From UHGV virus genome UHGV-1468108: a DNA stretch of 22,606 nucleotides; one strand, given 5' to 3'. The notes under the pieces are model-generated. The model was not told the DNA's origin, searched no databases, and saw nothing but the letters and a program-made list of their open reading frames with translations. The stretch comes from a virus. This document shows positions 7,189 through 22,552 of the stretch, one piece after another (position 1 is the first letter of the stretch; each line of letters opens with the position of its first letter). Position numbers and translations under genes: made by a program.

Positions 7189-8442
7189 ATGGCTAACCAA
7201 TTAGCAAAAGACCTTGAAATCATGTTCGAAAACTACGTTGAAGGCTTTGAGGCCGCCTGCGTAGTTTCCCGTAACGCTAAAAAATTCCGTCCCGGTGATA
7301 CAGCAATGCAGCGAGCAGGTGATGTTCTGTATCGTCCGCAGCATTACCACATGAACATTGAAGAAGGCCTCGATCTCAGCAGCAAAACGCCAACAGCACT
7401 GGTTCAGCGCCTTGTTCCTTCTGTGTTCAAGGAGCCGAAAAACATTCTGTACACTCTGGATGCGCGTGAAATGCGTGACCCTGAGCATAAAACTGAAGCT
7501 GGTCGCGCCGCAGGTATGCGCCTTGCTGCACAGATTGACTCTGACCTGATTTCCATGGTCACGCAGCGTGCTACTAACGTGATCACAATGGCTGACTCAA
7601 CCACTGGTTCACAGGGCCGTGATTTGTGGAACTGTGCGGCAGGTATTGATGCCACCATGACGGCGATTGGTGTACCACAGGGTATCAACCGCCGCTCTTT
7701 CTGGAACCCCTTCAACTACAAAGACCTTGCTGGCGAGCTTGGTCACCGTGCCTATGCTCAGGGCGCAACCCTGACAGCATACGAAAAAGCGCAGATCCCT
7801 CCGGTTGCTTCCTTTGATAGCTACAAGACCGATATTTCTGGTCGTGTTCCGAAGGGTACAGCAACTTCCCTGACGCTGGCGGCTGAACCTGCGCACAAGG
7901 TTGAAGCGAAAGATGCCAACGATATGCCAGTGGATAACCGACAGGGGACCATTACGGTATCTGCATCTGGTTTGCAGGTTGGCGATGCGTTCACCATTGC
8001 AGGGGTGAATTCCGTACACCAGATCACCAAAGATACCACCGGGCAGCCGCAGGTATTCCGCGTTCTGGCAGTAAGCGGAACGACAGTAACTATCTCCCCG
8101 AAAATTCTGCCGCCTGACAACGCGGATGTCGCCAGCCGACCATATGCAAACGTTGATGCTAACGCGGCAAATGGTGCAGCAATTACCATTCTCAACAAAA
8201 ATGCCGCACCGGCTAACCTGTTCTGGGCTGATGGTTCTGTTGAACTGATGTACGGCAAACTGGCGTTCCCGACTGGTCAGGGTCCACAGGTAATGACAGC
8301 AACCACCGAGCAGGGCGCTACGCTGATCATGTCTTACGCCTTCGACCACATCAAAGGTGTAACCACAGCTCGTTTCACCACTCTGTACGGTTGCTCGGTA
8401 CTGGTTCCTGAATATACGGGCATCGTTATTGCCGGGCAGTAA
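7189..8442 (+). CDS. gp5: Major capsid (coat) protein, P22 gp5-like
   Basis: 417 aa; motifs such as RPYANVDANAANGAAITILNKNAAPANLFWADGSVELMYG parallel P22 coat; GGAG ribosome-binding site; followed by a strong terminator. Confidence 0.9.
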   Translation: MANQLAKDLEIMFENYVEGFEAACVVSRNAKKFRPGDTAMQRAGDVLYRPQHYHMNIEEGLDLSSKTPTALVQRLVPSVFKEPKNILYTLDAREMRDPEHKTEAGRAAGMRLAAQIDSDLISMVTQRATNVITMADSTTGSQGRDLWNCAAGIDATMTAIGVPQGINRRSFWNPFNYKDLAGELGHRAYAQGATLTAYEKAQIPPVASFDSYKTDISGRVPKGTATSLTLAAEPAHKVEAKDANDMPVDNRQGTITVSASGLQVGDAFTIAGVNSVHQITKDTTGQPQVFRVLAVSGTTVTISPKILPPDNADVASRPYANVDANAANGAAITILNKNAAPANLFWADGSVELMYGKLAFPTGQGPQVMTATTEQGATLIMSYAFDHIKGVTTARFTTLYGCSVLVPEYTGIVIAGQ

Positions 8443-8447
8443 TTTTG

Positions 8448-8472
8448 GTGGGGCTTCGGCCCCATTTTTATT
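8448..8472 (+). terminator. Rho-independent terminator immediately after the coat gene
   Basis: GGGGC-TTCG-GCCCC hairpin (8450-8463) followed by ATTTTTATT. Confidence 0.6.
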
Positions 8473-8483
8473 GGGAGAAGGCA

Positions 8484-8672
8484 ATGGCACGAACAATGCT
8501 CTATAAGCCTGGCAACATGATCACCTGTGGTCAGTTTGCTGTCGATTACATCATTGTTGATGACGAAGAAGTTAAATCTCACCTGAAAAAAGGTTGGGTA
8601 AAAACTCCTGAAGAAACCGCAACGAAGCAAAAAGTGGCTAAGGCGGAAGAAGATGGCGAAAACGAAGGGTGA
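8484..8672 (+). CDS. Small hypothetical protein between coat and gp4
   Basis: ATG at 8484 preceded by GGGAGAAGG; 62 aa; its 3' end overlaps the gp4 start. The listed ORF start at 8445 is a TTG lying in the terminator and is not used. Confidence 0.4.
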   Translation: MARTMLYKPGNMITCGQFAVDYIIVDDEEVKSHLKKGWVKTPEETATKQKVAKAEEDGENEG

Positions 8673-9114
8673 TCTCGTTCTAAAGGCTTTACGAAAAGCC
8701 GGGCTGTATTCCAATGCCACGTTGACAGATGCTGACCCTCAGGCAATTGAAGATGCCATTAATGACCTCGAAGACATGATGGCAGCATGGCAGGCGAAAG
8801 GTATCGAGCTTGGGTATCAGTTTGCTGATACAGAAAACGGCATCATGCCGTTACCTGACGATGATTCAGGTATCCCTGCATGGGCAAATGATGGCGTCGC
8901 TTTGAAACTCGCTGTGCAAGTGTGCATGGATAACGTCATTCAGCCGTCGGATGCTCTCCTTACCGCTGCTGACTGTGCATATCAGACAATCTGTATCGCT
9001 TTAACCAAAATACCACCACTTGAGCGGCGAAATGACATGCCTCGCGGTAGTGGTAACAAAAGCGCGTTTACGTGGAATCGGTTTTACATCGAGAAAGATG
9101 ATCCGAGTACGTGA
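8653..9114 (+). CDS. gp4: Head completion / tail accessory factor, P22 gp4-like
   Basis: KTKGDLVLKALRKAGLYSNATLTDADPQAIEDAINDLEDMMAAW and the C-terminal RNDMPRGSGNKSAFTWN match P22 gp4 as recalled. Confidence 0.85.
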   Translation: MAKTKGDLVLKALRKAGLYSNATLTDADPQAIEDAINDLEDMMAAWQAKGIELGYQFADTENGIMPLPDDDSGIPAWANDGVALKLAVQVCMDNVIQPSDALLTAADCAYQTICIALTKIPPLERRNDMPRGSGNKSAFTWNRFYIEKDDPST

Positions 9115-9123
9115 GGTGAATAA

Positions 9124-9228
9124 ATGCCGATTCAGCAACTTCCGCTTATGAAAGGTGTCGGCAAAGATTTCCGAAACGCTGACTATATCGACTATCTGCC
9201 AGTGAATATGCTGGCAATTTTGATATAA
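9124..9228 (+). pseudogene. Truncated 5' remnant of gene 10 (codons 1-31 plus 3 junk codons and a stop)
   Basis: GAGGTG ribosome-binding site plus ATG; [31 protein letters not shown] is near-identical to the P22 gp10 N-terminus, then the frame reads ILI-stop where the AT-rich insertion begins (~9217). Confidence 0.7.
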
Positions 9229-9889
9229 TAAGTACATGAAAAATCGAAACTTTAAGGAGTAGATATGCTTTCTGAGAATGCTAAAGATATACCTGGATTT
9301 GAAGGTGTTTATGCCGTAACAGAAGATGGCAGGGTATATTCTCACTCACGTGTTGTTAAGGCTGCGCATGGCAGCACGCAACTCAGAAAGGGGCGCTGGT
9401 TAAAGCCTAAAATCAATCAGGGAAGGGTGCTTTATAATATCGGAGCAAAATGGACTTTTGCCCATCGAATCGTTGCAATGACATTCCTGCCAAATCCTGA
9501 AAACAAGCCTCAGGTAAATCATATTGATGGCAATCCACTCAATAATAACGTCAATAATCTTGAGTGGTGCACTCAAAGCGAAAACATCAAACATGCATAC
9601 GCCACCGGATTAAAGAAGCCAATCAAGTTTTTCGGAACCAAGCACCCAAAACACAAGTTGAGTGATGACGATGTTCTTGCAATCAAGTCATCAAAAGAAA
9701 GCTTGTCAGTAATTGCGGCTAAGTACGGGATATCTAAGACCTGGGCAAGTAGGCTAAAGCGTGATGCTAACTGGGTTCATATAAAGGTTGATTCCAATGG
9801 CAATACAACAACTACCACTAATGAAGGGATTGGGGAAAAGTGCGGTTAATGCTGATTATATAGACCAACTTCCAGTCAATCTTTTAGCT
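9217..9889 (+). mobile_element. Inserted segment: HNH homing-endonuclease gene plus a recoded copy of gene 10 codons 1-31
   Basis: AT-rich block interrupting gene 10. Its boundaries are defined by where gp10 homology is lost (after codon 31 of the remnant) and regained (codon 32 of the downstream copy). Confidence 0.6.
9265..9849 (+). CDS. HNH homing endonuclease (NUMOD4 + HNH_3 + C-terminal HTH)
   Basis: AAGGAG ribosome-binding site. IPGFEGVYAVTEDGRVYSHS is a NUMOD4-type motif; HRIVAMTFLPNPENKPQVNHIDGNPLNNNVNNLEWCTQSENIKHA is an HNH_3-type motif; the C-terminal region has an HTH-like KLSDDDVLAIK...SVIAAKYGISKTWASRLKR. AT-rich; the 3' end overlaps the gene 10 start in another frame. Confidence 0.85.
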   Translation: MLSENAKDIPGFEGVYAVTEDGRVYSHSRVVKAAHGSTQLRKGRWLKPKINQGRVLYNIGAKWTFAHRIVAMTFLPNPENKPQVNHIDGNPLNNNVNNLEWCTQSENIKHAYATGLKKPIKFFGTKHPKHKLSDDDVLAIKSSKESLSVIAAKYGISKTWASRLKRDANWVHIKVDSNGNTTTTTNEGIGEKCG

Positions 9890-11215
9890 ACGCCCAAGGA
9901 GGTGTTGAATTCATCGGGATATCTTCGCTCATTCCCGGGCATTGCAAAACGTTCTGATGTGAACGGTGTATCTCGCGGCGTCGAGTACAACATGGCGCAG
10001 AATGCTGTTTATCGTGTGTGTGGTGGCAAGCTGTACAAAGGAGAAAGTGAAGTCGGTGACGTTGCCGGAAGTGGTCGCGTATCAATGGCGCATGGTCGTA
10101 TATCACAGGCGGTAGGGGTTAACGGGAAACTGGTCGAGTATCGCTATGATGGCACGATTAAAACCGTCTCAAACTGGCCTACAGACAGCGGATTCACGCA
10201 GTATGAGTTAGGATCAGTCCGCGACATTACGCGCTTACGTGGGCGTTATGCGTGGTCAAAAGACGGCACTGATTCATGGTTTATCACTGACCTTGAAGAC
10301 GAATCGCATCCTGACCGTTACAGCGCACAATATCGCGCAGAATCGCAGCCTGACGGCATCATCGGCATAGGAACATGGCGAGACTTCATCGTCTGCTTTG
10401 GTTCATCGACGATTGAATATTTCTCCCTGACTGGCGCAACCACAGTTGGTGCTGCTTTGTATGTCGCACAGCCATCACTGATGGTGCAGAAAGGCATTGC
10501 CGGGACTTACTGCAAAACGCCATTCGCTGATTCGTATGCGTTCATCAGCAATCCGGCAACAGGTGCGCCGTCTGTATACATCATCGGCTCCGGTCAGGTG
10601 TCACCAATCGCCAGCGCGAGCATTGAGAAAATCCTCCGCTCCTACACTGCTGATGAACTGGCTGATGGTGTGATGGAATCGCTGCGATTTGATGCTCATG
10701 AGTTGCTGATTATCCACCTTCCGCGCCATGTTCTCGTGTACGACGCATCTTCAAGCGCCAATGGTCCGCAATGGTGTGTGCTGAAAACAGGTCTGTATGA
10801 CGATGTGTACCGCGCTATCGACTTCATTTACGAAGGCAATCAGATAACGTGCGGCGATAAACTGGAGTCCGTGACCGGGAAATTGCAATTCGACATCAGC
10901 AGCCAGTACGACAAGCAACAGGAACACCTGCTGTTTACTCCACTGTTCAAAGCGGATAACGCCAGATGCTTCGATCTGGAGGTGGAATCATCCACTGGCG
11001 TAGCTCAGTACGCCGACCGCCTGTTCCTCTCTGCAACCACTGACGGCATAAATTACGGGCGTGAGCAGATGATTGAACAGAATGAACCGTTCGTTTACGA
11101 CAAGCGTGTTTTGTGGAAGCGTGTCGGGCGCATCAGGAAAAACATTGGCTTCAAATTGCGCGTTATCACGAAGTCACCTGTCACTCTGTCTGGCTGCCAG
11201 ATAAGGATTGAGTAA
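9797..11215 (+). CDS. gp10: Tail accessory / plug protein, P22 gp10-like (complete gene, divergent 5' codons)
   Basis: [52 protein letters not shown]...LSGCQIRIE matches P22 gp10 along its whole length as recalled. ATG at 9797 chosen over the listed TTG at 9788. Confidence 0.9.
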
Positions 11216-16417: not shown

Positions 16418-16807
16418 CTAACATTTTCTTTTTACTTTTCCAACAAAAGCTTTGGTTGAATCCATATTTCCATAACCGGAAATGGTTTTTGACATTAAAA
16501 CTGTTCCAGTAGGATGTATTACCCATGAGTCGATAACGCGTTGAGTTTCGCCATTCGCGCCGATTCCTATGATGGAGTTTTTAGACAATGCTTTGTAAGC
16601 CATGCCGCCCGCATCTGTCCCAGAATATGTGATGCTGGCATCTTCACCGCTTGTCTTAATGATGAATGTTCCACTAAAACCATCTTCTTCCGGATGGAAA
16701 TTATTTCGTTCTGAATAGCTTATTCCGCGCATATCTCCAACGACCCAGCACTCTGCTGTAGCCCCAAAAGATATGAATAAGAACATAGCAGCAAGAAATT
16801 GCTTCAC
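16418..16807 (-). CDS. Small secreted hypothetical protein (signal peptide) at the sie locus
   Basis: GTG start with AAGAGG 5 nt upstream gives MKQFLAAMFLFISFGATAECW..., a signal-peptide-like N-terminus, then a ~105-aa Gly/Ser/Thr-rich mature part. AT-rich. The longer listed ORF (to 16879) has no ribosome-binding site. Confidence 0.5.
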   Translation of the reverse strand: MKQFLAAMFLFISFGATAECWVVGDMRGISYSERNNFHPEEDGFSGTFIIKTSGEDASITYSGTDAGGMAYKALSKNSIIGIGANGETQRVIDSWVIHPTGTVLMSKTISGYGNMDSTKAFVGKVKRKC

Positions 16808-17024
16808 ACCAACCTCTTTAGTTTTTCTAGTTACTTTATCACGATAGGATATGCAAATTGATAAAACTAAATTGCGCACATGATAACTCAGTAATAATTG
16901 TTAATGAAAACATGATCACCTATATTGCACAAGGCGAAACAGGAAGCATAATCTGGTTTCATGAGTGTGATCACGTTTGGGTAAATCAAAGTCAAGAGGA
17001 AATACTTGAAATTATCAAAAATAA

Positions 17025-17606
17025 CTATCTAAACGTTGCACACGACTCATCTATCCATTTTTCATAAAATTGTATACCGAGATAGGCAAGAACAGATGGA
17101 TGTATATCAACAAGCTTTTCGCCAAGATGTTCTGTTGGAGGTGGATAATCTTTGCCTTGGTTTCTTACGGTTATAGGCATAGTTGTTGCTGGATGAAACT
17201 CAACTATCATAGGGTCGCCTTCGTATTTTGCTATTTCCCCTGTTGAATCAATGATTAACTCTTTAATATAATGGCTTCTTGCTCCCGGAAATGCCCCAAG
17301 AGTAGTATAAGGAGGTTCAAGCTTTGAGATTTCCATAGTGGAATGATGATCAGCATTTCTTGCTTGGTGAAGGTAAGCAAGTGTTTTGTCTGTTTTTCTA
17401 AGCATGAACTTTTGGTTGAAGTGGCTGCTAAATTTTCCACTAACCGGCTTTGTTGCACAGAGCAACTTACTGAAAGACTTTTCTATATGCCCAAGACATT
17501 CTCGCCAGTGCATTTCAAAATCATCATGGTTTGTAGATGATTTCATCTGCTCTAGGCACTTTTTAGCTGCGATGATTTCTTTTTTTGCTGGGTTGTAATC
17601 GATCAT
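17025..17606 (-). CDS. Hypothetical 193-aa protein translationally coupled to mnt; possible HEPN-like accessory protein
   Basis: ATG overlaps the mnt stop (ATGA on the minus strand) with AAGGA upstream; AT-rich; predicted helical N-terminal half containing LHQARNADHH, an R-x4-H-like motif. Confidence 0.55.
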   Translation of the reverse strand: MIDYNPAKKEIIAAKKCLEQMKSSTNHDDFEMHWRECLGHIEKSFSKLLCATKPVSGKFSSHFNQKFMLRKTDKTLAYLHQARNADHHSTMEISKLEPPYTTLGAFPGARSHYIKELIIDSTGEIAKYEGDPMIVEFHPATTMPITVRNQGKDYPPPTEHLGEKLVDIHPSVLAYLGIQFYEKWIDESCATFR

Positions 17607-17879: not shown

Positions 17880-17932
17880 TTGACATGATAGAAGCACTCT
17901 ACTATATTCTCAATAGGTCCACCGTGGACCTA
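17880..17932. promoter_or_regulatory. Overlapping divergent Pant / Pmnt promoters with Arc and Mnt operators
   Basis: Pant -35 TTGACA (17880-17885), 17-nt spacer, -10 TATATT (17903-17908). On the minus strand, Pmnt -35 TTGAGA (17913-17908) and -10 TATCAT (17890-17885). Arc operator ATGATAGAAGCACTCTACTAT at 17886-17906. Perfect 17-bp palindrome AGGTCCACCGTGGACCT (Mnt operator) at 17915-17931. Confidence 0.8.
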
Positions 17933-17947
17933 TATTGTGAGGTGAAT

Positions 17948-18109
17948 ATGAAAGGAATGAGCAAAATGCCGCAGTTCAATTTGCGGTGGCCTAAAGAAGT
18001 ATTGGATTTGGTACGCAAGGTGGCGGAAGAGAATGGTCGGTCTGTTAACTCTGAGATTTATCAGAGAGTAATGGAAAGTTTTAAGAAGGAAGGACGCATT
18101 GGCGCGTAA
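17948..18109 (+). CDS. arc: Arc repressor (ribbon-helix-helix)
   Basis: [53 protein letters not shown], 53 aa, essentially P22 Arc; GAGGTG ribosome-binding site. The listed ORF start at 17885 is an upstream in-frame extension and is not used. Confidence 0.9.
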
Positions 18110-19113: not shown

Positions 19114-19131
19114 CAGATAACCAACGCAACG

Positions 19132-19157
19132 ACCCAGCTTCGGCTGGGTTTTTTTAT
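19132..19157 (+). terminator. Rho-independent terminator after ant
   Basis: ACCCAGC-TTCG-GCTGGGT hairpin followed by a T7 run. Confidence 0.6.
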
Positions 19158-19213
19158 GCCCAAAATTCACCGTAGCCATGCTGCGGCGATTCCTTGTATC
19201 TGGAGCAAATTAA

Positions 19214-21145
19214 ATGACAGATATCACCGCAAATGTTGTGGTAAGCATGCCTTCGCAACTCTTCACTATGGCGCGTTCTTTTAAAGCCGTAGCCAATGGC
19301 AAAATTTATATCGGCAAAATTGACACTGACCCGGTAAATCCTGAAAACCAGATTCAGGTTTATGTGGAGAACGAAGACGGTTCTCACGTTCCTGTATCGC
19401 AACCAATCATCATTAACGCTGCTGGTTACCCGGTATATAACGGACAGATTGCCAAATTCGTAACTGTGCAAGGCCATTCTATGGCTGTTTATGATGCGTA
19501 TGGTGCACAGCAGTTCAAATTCCCAAATGTGCTGAAGTACGACCCGGATCAGTTCACAAATCGCCTAGCCGATGTTTATGGCTCAACGCTGGTTGGAGGA
19601 GCGTATTTTTCTGATATAAGAACTTATTCTGAGAAATCAAAAAAAATATATTGCCTTGGGAGGTTAGAGTTATTTGATGGCGGAGAAGGATGGTTTTATT
19701 TAGATGATACAGACACTACGAGCGATGATGATGATGGAATCATTTTGGTTGGGGCTTCCGGTAGGAGATGGAAGAGGGTAATAGAAGGGAGCTACAAACC
19801 CGAATGGTGGGGAGCAGATCCTACTGATACCGTTGATTGCCATGCAGCATTTACAAAATGCATCGCTGCTGCACGGGGTAAAGAAATTAGTTTAAGTGGT
19901 AAATATAAATTTTCAAAACCACTTGTTATTGACTTTAATGATGAGGCGAGCCTGAAAATAACAGGTACTGGCTCTTATAATCATATGGCAAATGCCAAAA
20001 CTAAAAACCTTTGCTATTTAAATTTTGATTCTATACCGCAAAATTCGCGTGCCATTACTTTTAAGGGAGTAAGAGGTCTGGTTTTAGAAGATTTTCATAT
20101 ATCGCATCGTGCCGGTGGTAGTTCGATGTCAGTCGCTTTATGGCTGACTAAAATAGATGATTTTAGATTAACTGGTATTACTGTGGATTCCGATACTGGA
20201 CCTGGGGGGCAAGGTATCCGCTTTGGGGAATCTGATGGCACAGACTGTGCTTTCATGGGGAATATCTCTCATTGCAAAGTGTGGATGCATGGAGGTGGCC
20301 CTTCTTTCTGTGTGCAACCGGCATGTACTTCATTGCTGTTTGAAAACTGTTATGGCATTGGTGGTTGTTTCTATTTCCAAAATTGTATCTATTGCTCTAT
20401 GAACACTTGTGCAAGTGAAGGAAGTGAAGTTTCTGGGTATGGCTATATACTGCATTCTGTTGAAGGGTTTACTGCTATCAACTGCGCAGGGGAAGGAAAT
20501 AAGTTAGGTGTTTTTTATCTAACTACAGGGTGTTCTCAAGTAGTTCTTACCTCCCCATATGGCGCAGGGAATGGAAATCTTACTGGAGACATAGATGGAG
20601 CCCTGGTTAAGTTGGATGGCACATCCGGTGCCAATAGTAATATTTTGATAGAAAACCCAGTATCACATTCGCAGGTAGGTAATGTGACATCTGATATTAA
20701 TGCTGTAGGCGTCAATGGGCACACAGAAATAACTAATGTGTATTCAGAAAAACTAACAAAAGGAATAGCTGGTTCTGATTCCTGGATTCAGAACTATTTA
20801 ACAATTACAGGAGATTTGAGTTGTCGCGACTTTATACCTGGGATCCCTGGTTGGACAGCTCCAGGAGGTGCGTTAATTGAAGGAAAATTTACAAGAAATA
20901 ATAAGATTGTATCTTTTTCGGTTAAAGTGTCGCCAACAAACTATCTTTCATGTGAACATGGTCTATCAAAAACGACACTTCCGTCATTTGGAGGGCTGTT
21001 ATATGGAGGTGCAGCACAGGTTTCGAATACTGCTGGTACGAACTATGGATCTGCGATGATCGATACTAACGGTGTGGTTTGGATGCCAAACATAACCAGT
21101 ACGTCAAATGCAATAATCATAAGTGGGTCTGTGTTAACAAACTAA
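19214..21145 (+). CDS. gp9: Tailspike protein: P22 gp9-like head-binding domain fused to a divergent receptor-binding domain
   Basis: N-terminal ~115 aa ([13 protein letters not shown]...[25 protein letters not shown]...[15 protein letters not shown]...NVLKYDPDQ) match the P22 tailspike head-binding domain. The remainder is AT-rich and Cys-rich ([56 protein letters not shown]) and unlike P22. Confidence 0.9.
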
Positions 21146-21180
21146 TAAATTGATGTGATGGGGCATGGATGGGGCAAAAA

Positions 21181-21229
21181 TTAGCGCAAAACAACTCAAA
21201 ATCATCACAGGTTAAGATTCGTCTTGCGC
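21181..21229. terminator. Inverted repeat between convergent tailspike and integrase; possible bidirectional terminator
   Basis: TAGCGCAA (21182-21189) pairs with TTGCGCTA (21221-21228) around a ~31-nt loop; T-run on the minus-strand side (AAAAAT on + at 21176-21181). Confidence 0.3.
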
Positions 21230-21236
21230 TAATGAT

Positions 21237-22391
21237 TCATGCTTTTCCGTCAATGAAATCAGCCCACCACTGCATCATTTCTCTGCGCTTATCCAGATAC
21301 TGAGCATGGTTGTAAATCCCGCGCACAGATCCGCCGTTGGCATGTGCCAGTTGCACTTCAATAGCATCAGCGGGCCATTCGTGCTCGTTCATAATCGTGC
21401 TGAATTCATGCCTGAATCCGTGACCGCTTTCCAGACCTTCATAGCCGATTTGTTTGATTACAAGCAGCACCGCATTCTCGCAGATTGGCTTCTTCTTATC
21501 GTTTCGCCCGGCAAAAACAAACTCTGATACTGGTTTGGTGATGGAGCTTAACGTAGTGAGAAGTTCAACCACCTGGTCTGACATCGGGACCACATGAATT
21601 TTGCGTCCTTTCATCACACTGGCGTCGATGGTGATAATCCTGTTTTCAAAATCGACGTTCTTCCATAGCATGGAACGAAGCTCTTTCGTTCTTAGGGCAG
21701 TGTAGCGTAAAACTTTGGTCGCAATGAGCGATACGATACTTCCTGAAAATGTTGCCAGTGCTTTGTTGAATGCAGGGATCTGGTCTGCTGGAAGAAACGG
21801 GAAGTTCTTCTTGCGGTATCCTTTCATGGCGTCTGCAAGGTCAGGTGCCGGGTTATATTTAGCCCTTCCGGTGACAATAGCGTAACGGAAAACCTCGCCG
21901 CATCTTCTGCGTGCTTTGTTGGCTCGCTCCATTGCACCGCGATCTTCAAATCTGCGGATTACTTCCAACAGTTGCATCGGCTCAATATCCTGAATCTCAA
22001 GACCGCCGATGATGGGTAAAATGTCGTCATCAAACATTTTGGCAAGTTCAGTTGCATAGCCTACTGACCAGACTTGCTTCTTGTGCTCGTACCATTCCTT
22101 GTAAATCGCACTAAAGGAATTGTTGTTAGACGAAGCCTTTTTCGCTTTTACCGGATCGATGCCAACCGAGATGTCTTTCCTCGCGGTCCATGCTTTATCC
22201 CTTGCCTCTTGCAAAGTCATAAGCGGATATTTTCCGACGGTCAGGATTTTCTCCTTACCGTCAATCTTGTAGCGAAGCTGCCATACCTTTTTCCCGGATA
22301 CAGGGACATAAAGGTACAGGCCATTACCATCGAGAAGGCGGTATGGTTTTTCTTTCGGCTTTGCTGCTTCAATCTGCTTAACGGTGAGCAT
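21237..22391 (-). CDS. int: Tyrosine integrase, P4-type (DUF4102-like N-terminal arm-binding domain)
   Basis: MLTVKQIEAAKPKEKPYRLLDGNGLYLYVPVSGKKVWQLRYKIDGKEKILTVGKYP is the typical P4-family N-terminus; the C-terminal catalytic region has HGFRHEFST...LAHANGG...RGIYNHAQY (R, H-x-x-R and Tyr nucleophile context). Alternative GTG start at 22427. Confidence 0.85.
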   Translation of the reverse strand: MLTVKQIEAAKPKEKPYRLLDGNGLYLYVPVSGKKVWQLRYKIDGKEKILTVGKYPLMTLQEARDKAWTARKDISVGIDPVKAKKASSNNNSFSAIYKEWYEHKKQVWSVGYATELAKMFDDDILPIIGGLEIQDIEPMQLLEVIRRFEDRGAMERANKARRRCGEVFRYAIVTGRAKYNPAPDLADAMKGYRKKNFPFLPADQIPAFNKALATFSGSIVSLIATKVLRYTALRTKELRSMLWKNVDFENRIITIDASVMKGRKIHVVPMSDQVVELLTTLSSITKPVSEFVFAGRNDKKKPICENAVLLVIKQIGYEGLESGHGFRHEFSTIMNEHEWPADAIEVQLAHANGGSVRGIYNHAQYLDKRREMMQWWADFIDGKA

Positions 22392-22552
22392 GGGTAAAAA
22401 TCCGGTGGGTAAAATTATTTTATCCACTTTTTACCCGTCATGGAGTGCGGCTGTCAACGATCTGACGCGAACCATTACGAACTGTTAATCTACGGAAGGC
22501 TTGATATTCAGGGGATTTTGCGGACTGGTACGGATGGGAGCGAACTGATAAA

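Follow-up and report, generated by a model that had tools for sequence, protein, structure and literature searches.

The tailspikes of the P22 family (P22 gp9, Sf6 gp14, HK620 gp9 and the CUS-3 endosialidase spike) all carry the same head-binding domain, PF09008. After this anchor they have the same ...YDPDQ junction and then a beta-helix body, and their genes occupy the same position, after ant and beside int. Module swapping at the P22 junction is a textbook phenomenon. Here, we analyzed the tailspike gene of the UHGV virus genome UHGV-1468108, a stretch of 22,606 nucleotides (hereafter, the window) that is a metagenome scaffold (ENA ERZ28578782) and corresponds to the late half of a CUS-3-like P22-family prophage. 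Like the family members named above, the window tailspike has the anchor and the junction, followed by a body that is predicted to be a beta-helix. We consider, with a probability of about 0.85, that the gene is the single tailspike of a CUS-3-like, P22-family (Lederbergvirus-type) temperate Escherichia phage, with an acquired receptor cassette. An earlier note, written from the sequence without database searches, had interpreted the gene as a chimera of a conserved anchor and a foreign receptor module, and our results supported this interpretation. That note had named two outcomes as refuting it, a good alignment of the C-terminal region with the P22, Sf6 or HK620 receptor-binding domains and uniform GC content and codon usage along the gene; we looked for both and observed neither. 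The scaffold, the swapping at the junction and a generic NCBI tailspike annotation were already known; what is new is an uncharacterised subtype of receptor module. The features of the locus are listed in Table 1.

Our domain search showed that PF09008 (Head_binding) covers residues 1-113 of the protein (profile positions 1-113 of 113, E 5.5e-66). The anchor could be aligned with the N-termini of Sf6 gp14 and P22 gp9 only up to residue ~115-119, and it also aligned to the PDB entries 7SG7, 1LKT and 2VKY. Its DNA was 87-97% identical to that of P22-like phages and E. coli prophages (87-93% for Sf6, HK620 and CUS-3). The nucleotide matches to 28 phage and 1,138 E. coli records all ended at nucleotides (nt) 339-347 of the gene; that is, the likeness to known phages and E. 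coli genomes ends at codon ~114. In an alignment with CUS-3, HK620, Sf6 and the closest E. coli prophage, identity was 80-100% through ...LKYDPDQF and random beyond it. These results agree with the claim of the earlier note that the protein is P22-like from residue 1 to about residue 115, up to LKYDPDQ. The PF09008 domain, the LKYDPDQ linker and the place of the gene after mnt, arc and ant and beside the integrase gene are all features of a P22-like tailspike.

Two candidates were tried and rejected. The CUS-3 "boundary sequence" bsq1, taken as a possible domain junction, lies 5' of the spike gene. PHROG 8280 ("tail spike protein with colanic acid degradation activity") matched the whole protein (E 3e-117), and the match was lost when residues 116-643 were searched alone. 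It therefore comes from the common anchor and has no bearing on colanic acid.

To locate the exchanged segment, the window was compared with three prophage copies of the cassette (L007, L008 and L022). In the anchor, 20-32% of the synonymous sites differed (pS 0.20-0.32), and the ratio of nonsynonymous to synonymous divergence was low (pN/pS 0.03-0.10), whereas only 0.3-0.7% of the synonymous sites differed in the module (pS 0.003-0.007). In all three independent comparisons, the last backbone-type difference was found at gene nt 318 and the next difference at nt 452, so the near-identical block starts at the LKYDPDQ junction (nt 319-451). This is the module swapping at the usual junction that had been proposed from the sequence. 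The block extends to about gene nt 2100, within the 3' end of int. The 3' flank was identical at 214/220 positions in L007 and L008, and the likeness to other P22-like phages resumes at window ~21242-21259. Upstream, the immI region bears no relation to that of L007, and in L008 and L022 it is a mosaic. Thus, a cassette of ~1.7-1.8 kb (window ~19556 to ~21241-21313, by comparison) has recently spread among diverged backbones. It moved by recombination at the conserved junction and at the int-proximal flank. Taken to end at window ~21241, it measures about 1.69 kb.

The same tailspike is already present in public records. An identical protein is annotated by NCBI as "phage tailspike protein" of E. 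coli (WP_244599908.1 and others), a 644-residue variant occurs in E. albertii, and the cluster at 90% identity has 101 members from E. coli and E. albertii (among them WP_256876447.1 of E. albertii), which are near-identical and full-length. Beyond this cluster, the module is rare. A word-indexed search of 5.8 billion clusters gave 13 matches, only 8 of which span the helix, and a profile search added linker-domain matches only. When 1.84 billion representatives were searched exhaustively with HMMER, 61 proteins reached E <= 1e-3, and 25 of these reached E <= 1e-30. Neither megablast nor sensitive blastn detected a copy of the module in 5,426 complete E. coli genomes, and the JGI metagenomes had none. 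IMG/VR contained two prophage copies at 98% identity (L007 and L008) and the Shigella phage Sd1. Among the GTDB species representatives, only a Collimonas relative (36% identical) was found. This relative, in a betaproteobacterial metagenome-assembled genome (Collimonas sp., NZ_DATMRB010000138.1; L015:626-1942), has both the helix and the C-terminal domain, which indicates that the module family is not confined to enterobacterial phages.

The closest relatives outside prophages form a "lytic" subtype, whose members are 78-85% identical to one another and 52-53% identical to the window module. We found this subtype on three unrelated adaptors, namely Drexlerviridae, Kuravirus-like and Guernseyvirinae-like. 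The Drexlerviridae carrier is gp17 of Sd1 (Wilsonroadvirus; L001:5314-7572), the only isolated-phage protein with the module, which is annotated as "putative structural protein / tail fiber protein". It belongs to the lytic subtype, which is ~52% identical to the prophage subtype; it is 52.6% identical to the window protein over 96% of the C-terminal 528 residues and was the only close match in BFVD (E 2e-54, TM 0.74). However, its N-terminus is the 227-residue adaptor of a siphovirus lateral fibre, and its genome is lytic and 48 kb long. The second carrier is a Kuravirus-like podovirus contig of 72 kb with SU10-type adaptor and portal genes (L002:5031-7946 and 8001-10037), in which the module adjoins a second beta-helix spike of 971 residues. 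The third is a siphovirus contig of 44.8 kb with Guernseyvirinae-like tail genes (L003:8001-9956).

The Kuravirus-like and Guernseyvirinae-like adaptors both end in ...NPVGNADWKPQTDPxLREDLA, which resembles the ...YDPDQF..RLA junction of P22. The likeness is a hint that temperate and lytic platforms share one site of exchange. Pas et al. (2023; PMC10408124) have reported conserved exchange motifs, and the motif of the lytic adaptors fits their report. The same logic of exchange between anchors and receptor-binding domains is found in their study and in the BASEL completion paper (PMC11990801); neither mentions Sd1 or this module subtype.

Tailspike receptor modules decide which strains are infected, and they are used in serotyping tools, engineered phages and tailocins. 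Here, a rare module without a characterised relative moves among four virion architectures and among diverged P22-like prophages, and its junction has been mapped precisely. If its glycan were identified, the module would add a new specificity to the toolbox for E. coli and E. albertii. Because swapping at the P22 junction is so well established, our finding extends this knowledge and does not change it.

We then examined the architecture of the module. The AlphaFold model (monomer, 19 sequences) was confident for residues 130-643 (predicted local distance difference test, pLDDT, mostly 85-95) and poor only in the anchor, where the alignment was shallow and the structure is already known. It has the stacked, three-stranded rungs of ~22-25 residues that define a right-handed beta-helix, and Foldseek agreed with a right-handed parallel beta-helix. 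According to the model, the module is a right-handed parallel beta-helix followed by a C-terminal beta-sandwich; it falls in the tailspike fold class and forms a separate sequence family. The structure prediction that the earlier note had recommended thus favours a beta-helix. That note had also described the domain as unlike the P22 endorhamnosidase. This holds for the sequence, but the predicted fold class is the same. Sequence and profile searches of the PDB reached the P22, Sf6 and HK620 entries through the head-binding domain only (residues 1-119), and BLASTP of the C-terminal 528 residues against the receptor domains gave non-significant matches to Sf6 (E 2.7) and HK620 (E 0.10).

Beyond a linker of ~100 residues, the C-terminal 528 residues had no sequence match in Pfam, NCBIfam or the PDB. 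The Pfam scan of the window protein gave nothing past residue 113; the linker domain, the recently defined PF27114 (Phage_tail_beta), comes from a hit precomputed for the exact protein and its relatives, and its coordinates were taken from the alignment with 5W5P. This linker and the first rung are in common with the Klebsiella K2-2 TSP (8IQ5/8IQ9) and the tailspike of Acinetobacter phage AM24 (5W5P). The profile alignment of the linker gave E 1e-18 for AM24 5W5P and ~1e-7 for the Klebsiella K2 spikes, and K2-2 TSP and the AM24 tailspike were also top Foldseek matches. However, the likeness is limited to residues ~126-240, the helix bodies are 12-14% identical, and both spikes are capsule depolymerases of other genera. 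The best structural match was CBA120 TSP2, an O157-specific tailspike (PDB 5W6P/6W4Q), which has 13% identity, an Ackermannviridae-type anchor and no detectable sequence-level relationship to the window module. The suspicion of Gly/Asn-rich repeats was correct only in part. Glycine is enriched in the tailspike (13.1% vs 7.4%), but asparagine is not (6.1% vs 5.4%), and neither TRF nor self-BLASTP detected sequence repeats. The periodicity is structural and comes from the beta-helix rungs.

The mode of action may be outlined by analogy with other spikes of this kind. Residues 1-115 would plug the spike into the tail hub, and the spike would assemble as a trimer, like other beta-helix tailspikes. 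The module would then bind and cleave a host surface polysaccharide, by which the virion would descend to the outer membrane. Rung-stacked conserved carboxylates are typical of beta-helix glycosidases (GH28 and the P22, HK620 and Sf6 spikes). In the window protein, E402 and E427 are at position 11 of two successive rungs of the cysteine ladder (see below), and D468 lies two rungs on. Each of the three is kept in 25/26 relatives, along with Y231, Y380, Y393 and N453, and this trio probably includes the catalytic carboxylates. The target is most likely an uncommon O-antigen of E. coli or E. albertii; a capsule, as for CUS-3 and the HS phages, is less likely. O-antigen is the general target of single-spike P22-like prophages and of the Kuravirus, Kagunavirus and Drexlerviridae lateral spikes (PMC10408124, PMC11990801). 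The E. coli HS preprint deals with other spikes.

Several points weigh against this account. The window protein stays under every Pfam threshold for beta-helix and pectate-lyase domains; it had no match to PF12708 or PF13229 at E <= 1, and only 8/26 relatives matched PF12708 (3/26 for PF13229). What points to the catalytic residues is their conservation and their register on the modelled rungs, and trimer formation, cleavage and receptor binding are taken from the established biology of the family. Among isolated phages, a related module is present in Sd1 alone, and as this phage grows on rough E. coli B, the spike may be dispensable there and the host gives no clue to the glycan. Nor is any O or K type linked to the gene, owing to the absence of the module from the complete E. 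coli genomes and the JGI metagenomes, with only Collimonas in GTDB. Finally, all structural matches have 9-17% identity, a level at which a hydrolase, a lyase and a non-catalytic binder are indistinguishable. The module could bind its glycan without cleaving it, or modify it otherwise (lyase, deacetylase or epimerase-like), rather than act as a glycoside hydrolase. Of the alternatives that we considered, this one survives best. Still, we regard it as rather unlikely, given the conservation of E402, E427 and D468 on stacked rungs and the description of CBA120 TSP2 as an enzymatically active domain. A broader proposal can also be made, which we put forward tentatively and with some doubt: the module may found a small, uncharacterised family of glycan depolymerases (~60 clusters at 50% identity worldwide), marked by a conserved cysteine ladder over four rungs and an E/E/D triad, in which a fast-evolving C-terminal beta-sandwich sets the fine specificity. 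The two C-terminal haplotypes present in prophages of E. coli and E. albertii would then recognise different variants of a surface glycan.

The abundance of cysteines, which had been read as a cysteine-rich receptor domain, was confirmed as a count. The 643 residues include 17 cysteines, all of them past residue 115, and residues 340-445 account for 11. The share of cysteine is 3.2%, compared with 0.8% in the other window proteins (p = 3e-6; p = 2e-9 for the local stretch). However, an interior ladder explains this stretch better than a special cysteine-rich domain. In the rung layout, which was taken from the predicted secondary structure of the model, C354, C379, C399 and C424 each occupy residue 8 of their rung, a position in the turn that follows strand one, and the four rungs are consecutive (contexts HC-KVW, NC-YGI, TC-ASE and NC-AGE); C371, C391 and C440 are at rung ends. 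Of the 26 family members, 21, 26, 25 and 25 retain the respective ladder cysteines, while the other cysteines vary with Ser, Ala, Thr or Tyr. Parallel beta-helices are known to stack identical residues. We therefore suggest from the model that the stretch is a buried ladder of reduced cysteines with lineage-specific changes from small residues to cysteine, and not a disulfide or metal motif. Such an interior stack over four rungs would stabilise the helix core.

It might be argued that so dense a group (11 cysteines in 106 residues, p = 2e-9), with six extra lineage-specific cysteines close to the ladder, forms disulfides or a functionally special metal cluster within residues 345-440. This is improbable, because the same position on four consecutive rungs, together with four more cysteines at rung ends, is the geometry of a stacking ladder and not of paired disulfides. 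Moreover, the free exchange of the non-ladder cysteines takes place without any co-varying partner among the 26 relatives, and there is no CxxC or CxxH spacing.

The differences among copies of the module are mostly amino acid replacements. Compared with L022, the module has 29.5 nonsynonymous to 1.5 synonymous differences (Fisher p = 8e-8 vs the anchor; binomial p = 0.013 vs neutrality). Residues 541-643 have 18 nonsynonymous and 0 synonymous differences within 245 nt (p = 0.006); the C-terminal alleles compared were residues 529-643 of the window protein and L022:7585-7929. This signal of selection is drawn from one or two synonymous changes among four distinct DNA alleles, which also has to be counted against our reading. 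In 14 cluster members, the C-terminal sites that differ are linked and fall into two haplotypes, LIINYEHLVNNNS vs SAMSTAQTIDSTA, in which 13-14 residues differ. Haplotype A has L554, I555, I565, N576, Y577, E581, H582, L584, V603, N605, N610, N626 and S631. At the same 13 sites haplotype B has S, A, M, S, T, A, Q, T, I, D, S, T and A, respectively, so that its side chains are systematically smaller. Blocks at residues 151-166 and 296-437 are also reshuffled among the copies. We favour adaptive retuning of receptor recognition as the explanation of the replacement excess. It has been reported that point mutations in the Sf6 tailspike widen the host range (PMC9400499). The replacement-rich C-terminal domain could serve as a compact natural experiment on how the specificity of a spike is retuned.

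A diversity-generating retroelement (DGR), instead of selection on point mutations, might also write such a block. The 18:0 ratio within 245 nt would fit a DGR, as would the many changes that strike AAY (Asn) codons of haplotype A at position one or two and the two discrete haplotypes, which look like the products of single events. Nevertheless, we consider a DGR very improbable. No template repeat (a second copy of 20801-21145) was found in the window, in L004-L008 or in L022, and the ORFs of the 22.6-kb window, which is the late half of the prophage, include no reverse transcriptase; nor do the related loci. Only 91 nt separate the stop codon from the integrase gene. The excess also spans residues 151-512, ~1.2 kb, which is beyond the reach of a DGR. 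The closely related backbones CUS-3, Kapi1 and N7 are not known to carry DGRs.

The base composition changes at the junction, as the earlier note had stated. Overall GC content is 44.6% before the junction and 40.8% after it (47.6% for the window), while GC content at third codon positions (GC3) falls from 46.1% to 29.9%. If the amino acids are kept fixed and codons are chosen as in the late operon, a GC3 of 0.478 is expected for the module, but 0.277 is observed (z = -9.2), whereas the anchor does not deviate from expectation (z = -0.7); codon usage is thus not uniform along the gene. The AT-richness past the junction is real, modest over all bases and strong at third codon positions. The lytic genomes with related modules have ~42% GC and a module GC3 of 32-36%, and phages of this kind are plausible donors of the AT-rich cassette. 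One could instead attribute the low GC to the amino acid makeup of a beta-helix rich in Gly, Ser, Thr and Asn, with no foreign origin, as the overall drop is small and other accessory genes in the window are equally AT-rich. This explanation was tested by the comparison with fixed amino acids and rejected. It is hardly credible, since the DNA likeness to every backbone relative ends at the junction and one cassette is found in diverged backbones.

That the gene is a functionless, decaying remnant of a defective prophage is also scarcely believable: although the window is a metagenome scaffold, the 643-codon frame is intact with its ribosome-binding site, the P22-type late operon upstream is complete and intact, and the near-identical copies in E. 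coli and E. albertii number 101 and are full-length.

Table 1. Features of the tailspike locus in window coordinates (a point marks a feature without strand).
Feature	Position	Strand	Basis
Tailspike open reading frame (ORF), 643 amino acids, ATG start	19214-21145	+	ORF read from sequence
Head-binding (virion anchor) domain, residues 1-115	19214..19558	+	PF09008; Sf6/P22 alignment; DNA identity
LKYDPDQ junction, residues 107-113, 5' recombination boundary of the receptor cassette	19532..19552	+	
Linker beta domain PF27114 Phage_tail_beta, ~residues 126-223, then PEWWGA helix start	19589..19882	+	Precomputed Pfam hit
Predicted right-handed parallel beta-helix, ~residues 224-515, presumed glycan-binding/depolymerase body	19883..20758	+	
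Cysteine-dense rungs, residues 345-440 (C354/C379/C399/C424, E402, E427; D468 just beyond)	20246..20533	+	
Predicted C-terminal beta-sandwich, residues 529-643	20798..21142	+	Model secondary structure
3' flank carried along with the cassette, as far as the integrase gene's 3' end	21146..21241	.	Similarity and flank identity
GGAG ribosome-binding site, 9 nt 5' of the tailspike ATG	19202..19205	+	Read from sequence
Terminator-like hairpin and T-run, 3' of ant and 5' of the tailspike gene	19131..19150	+	Consensus scan
CUS-3-type tyrosine integrase, marks the prophage end beside the tailspike gene	21237..22427	-	Pfam Phage_integrase, Phage_int_M, Arm-DNA-bind_3

In the window, homologues of the terminase, portal, scaffold, coat, gp4, gp10, needle, gp14, gp7, gp20 and gp16 genes are followed by those for Mnt, Arc and Ant, then by the tailspike gene and the CUS-3-type integrase gene. 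CUS-3 matches 64% of the window at 95% identity, and the DNA of the integrase gene is 95-97% identical to those of CUS-3, N7 and Kapi1. In HK620, the terminator tANT is annotated upstream of gene 9, at the same position as the window hairpin; judged by this position alone, the hairpin may be a tANT-like terminator. Downstream of the tailspike gene, the consensus scan found no convincing intrinsic terminator.

Three other parts of the window deserve mention. An ORF of 194 amino acids (9265-9849, + strand) resembles HNH/NUMOD4 homing endonucleases (PHROG 59; Pfam NUMOD4 and HNH_3). It is flanked by the gp4-like and gp10-like head-completion genes, overlaps the 5' end of the gp10 homologue, and has a GC content of 42%, compared with ~50% in the adjoining genes. 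We take it as a probable mobile element inserted into the late operon.

Between the gene-16 homologue and mnt, the place of the sieA and hkc morons in P22 and HK620, there are two AT-rich ORFs (39-40% GC) of 153 and 193 amino acids (16418-16879 and 17025-17606, both on the - strand). They match only PHROGs of unknown function (2651 and 23516) and gave no Pfam, NCBIfam or PADLOC match. We regard them as candidate superinfection-exclusion or defence genes.

The mechanically called ORF of Arc (17885-18109, + strand) has 74 amino acids, compared with 47 in a public record (L004:8753-8896). The Pfam Arc match begins at residue 25 of the longer ORF, and the true start of Arc is probably an internal ATG.

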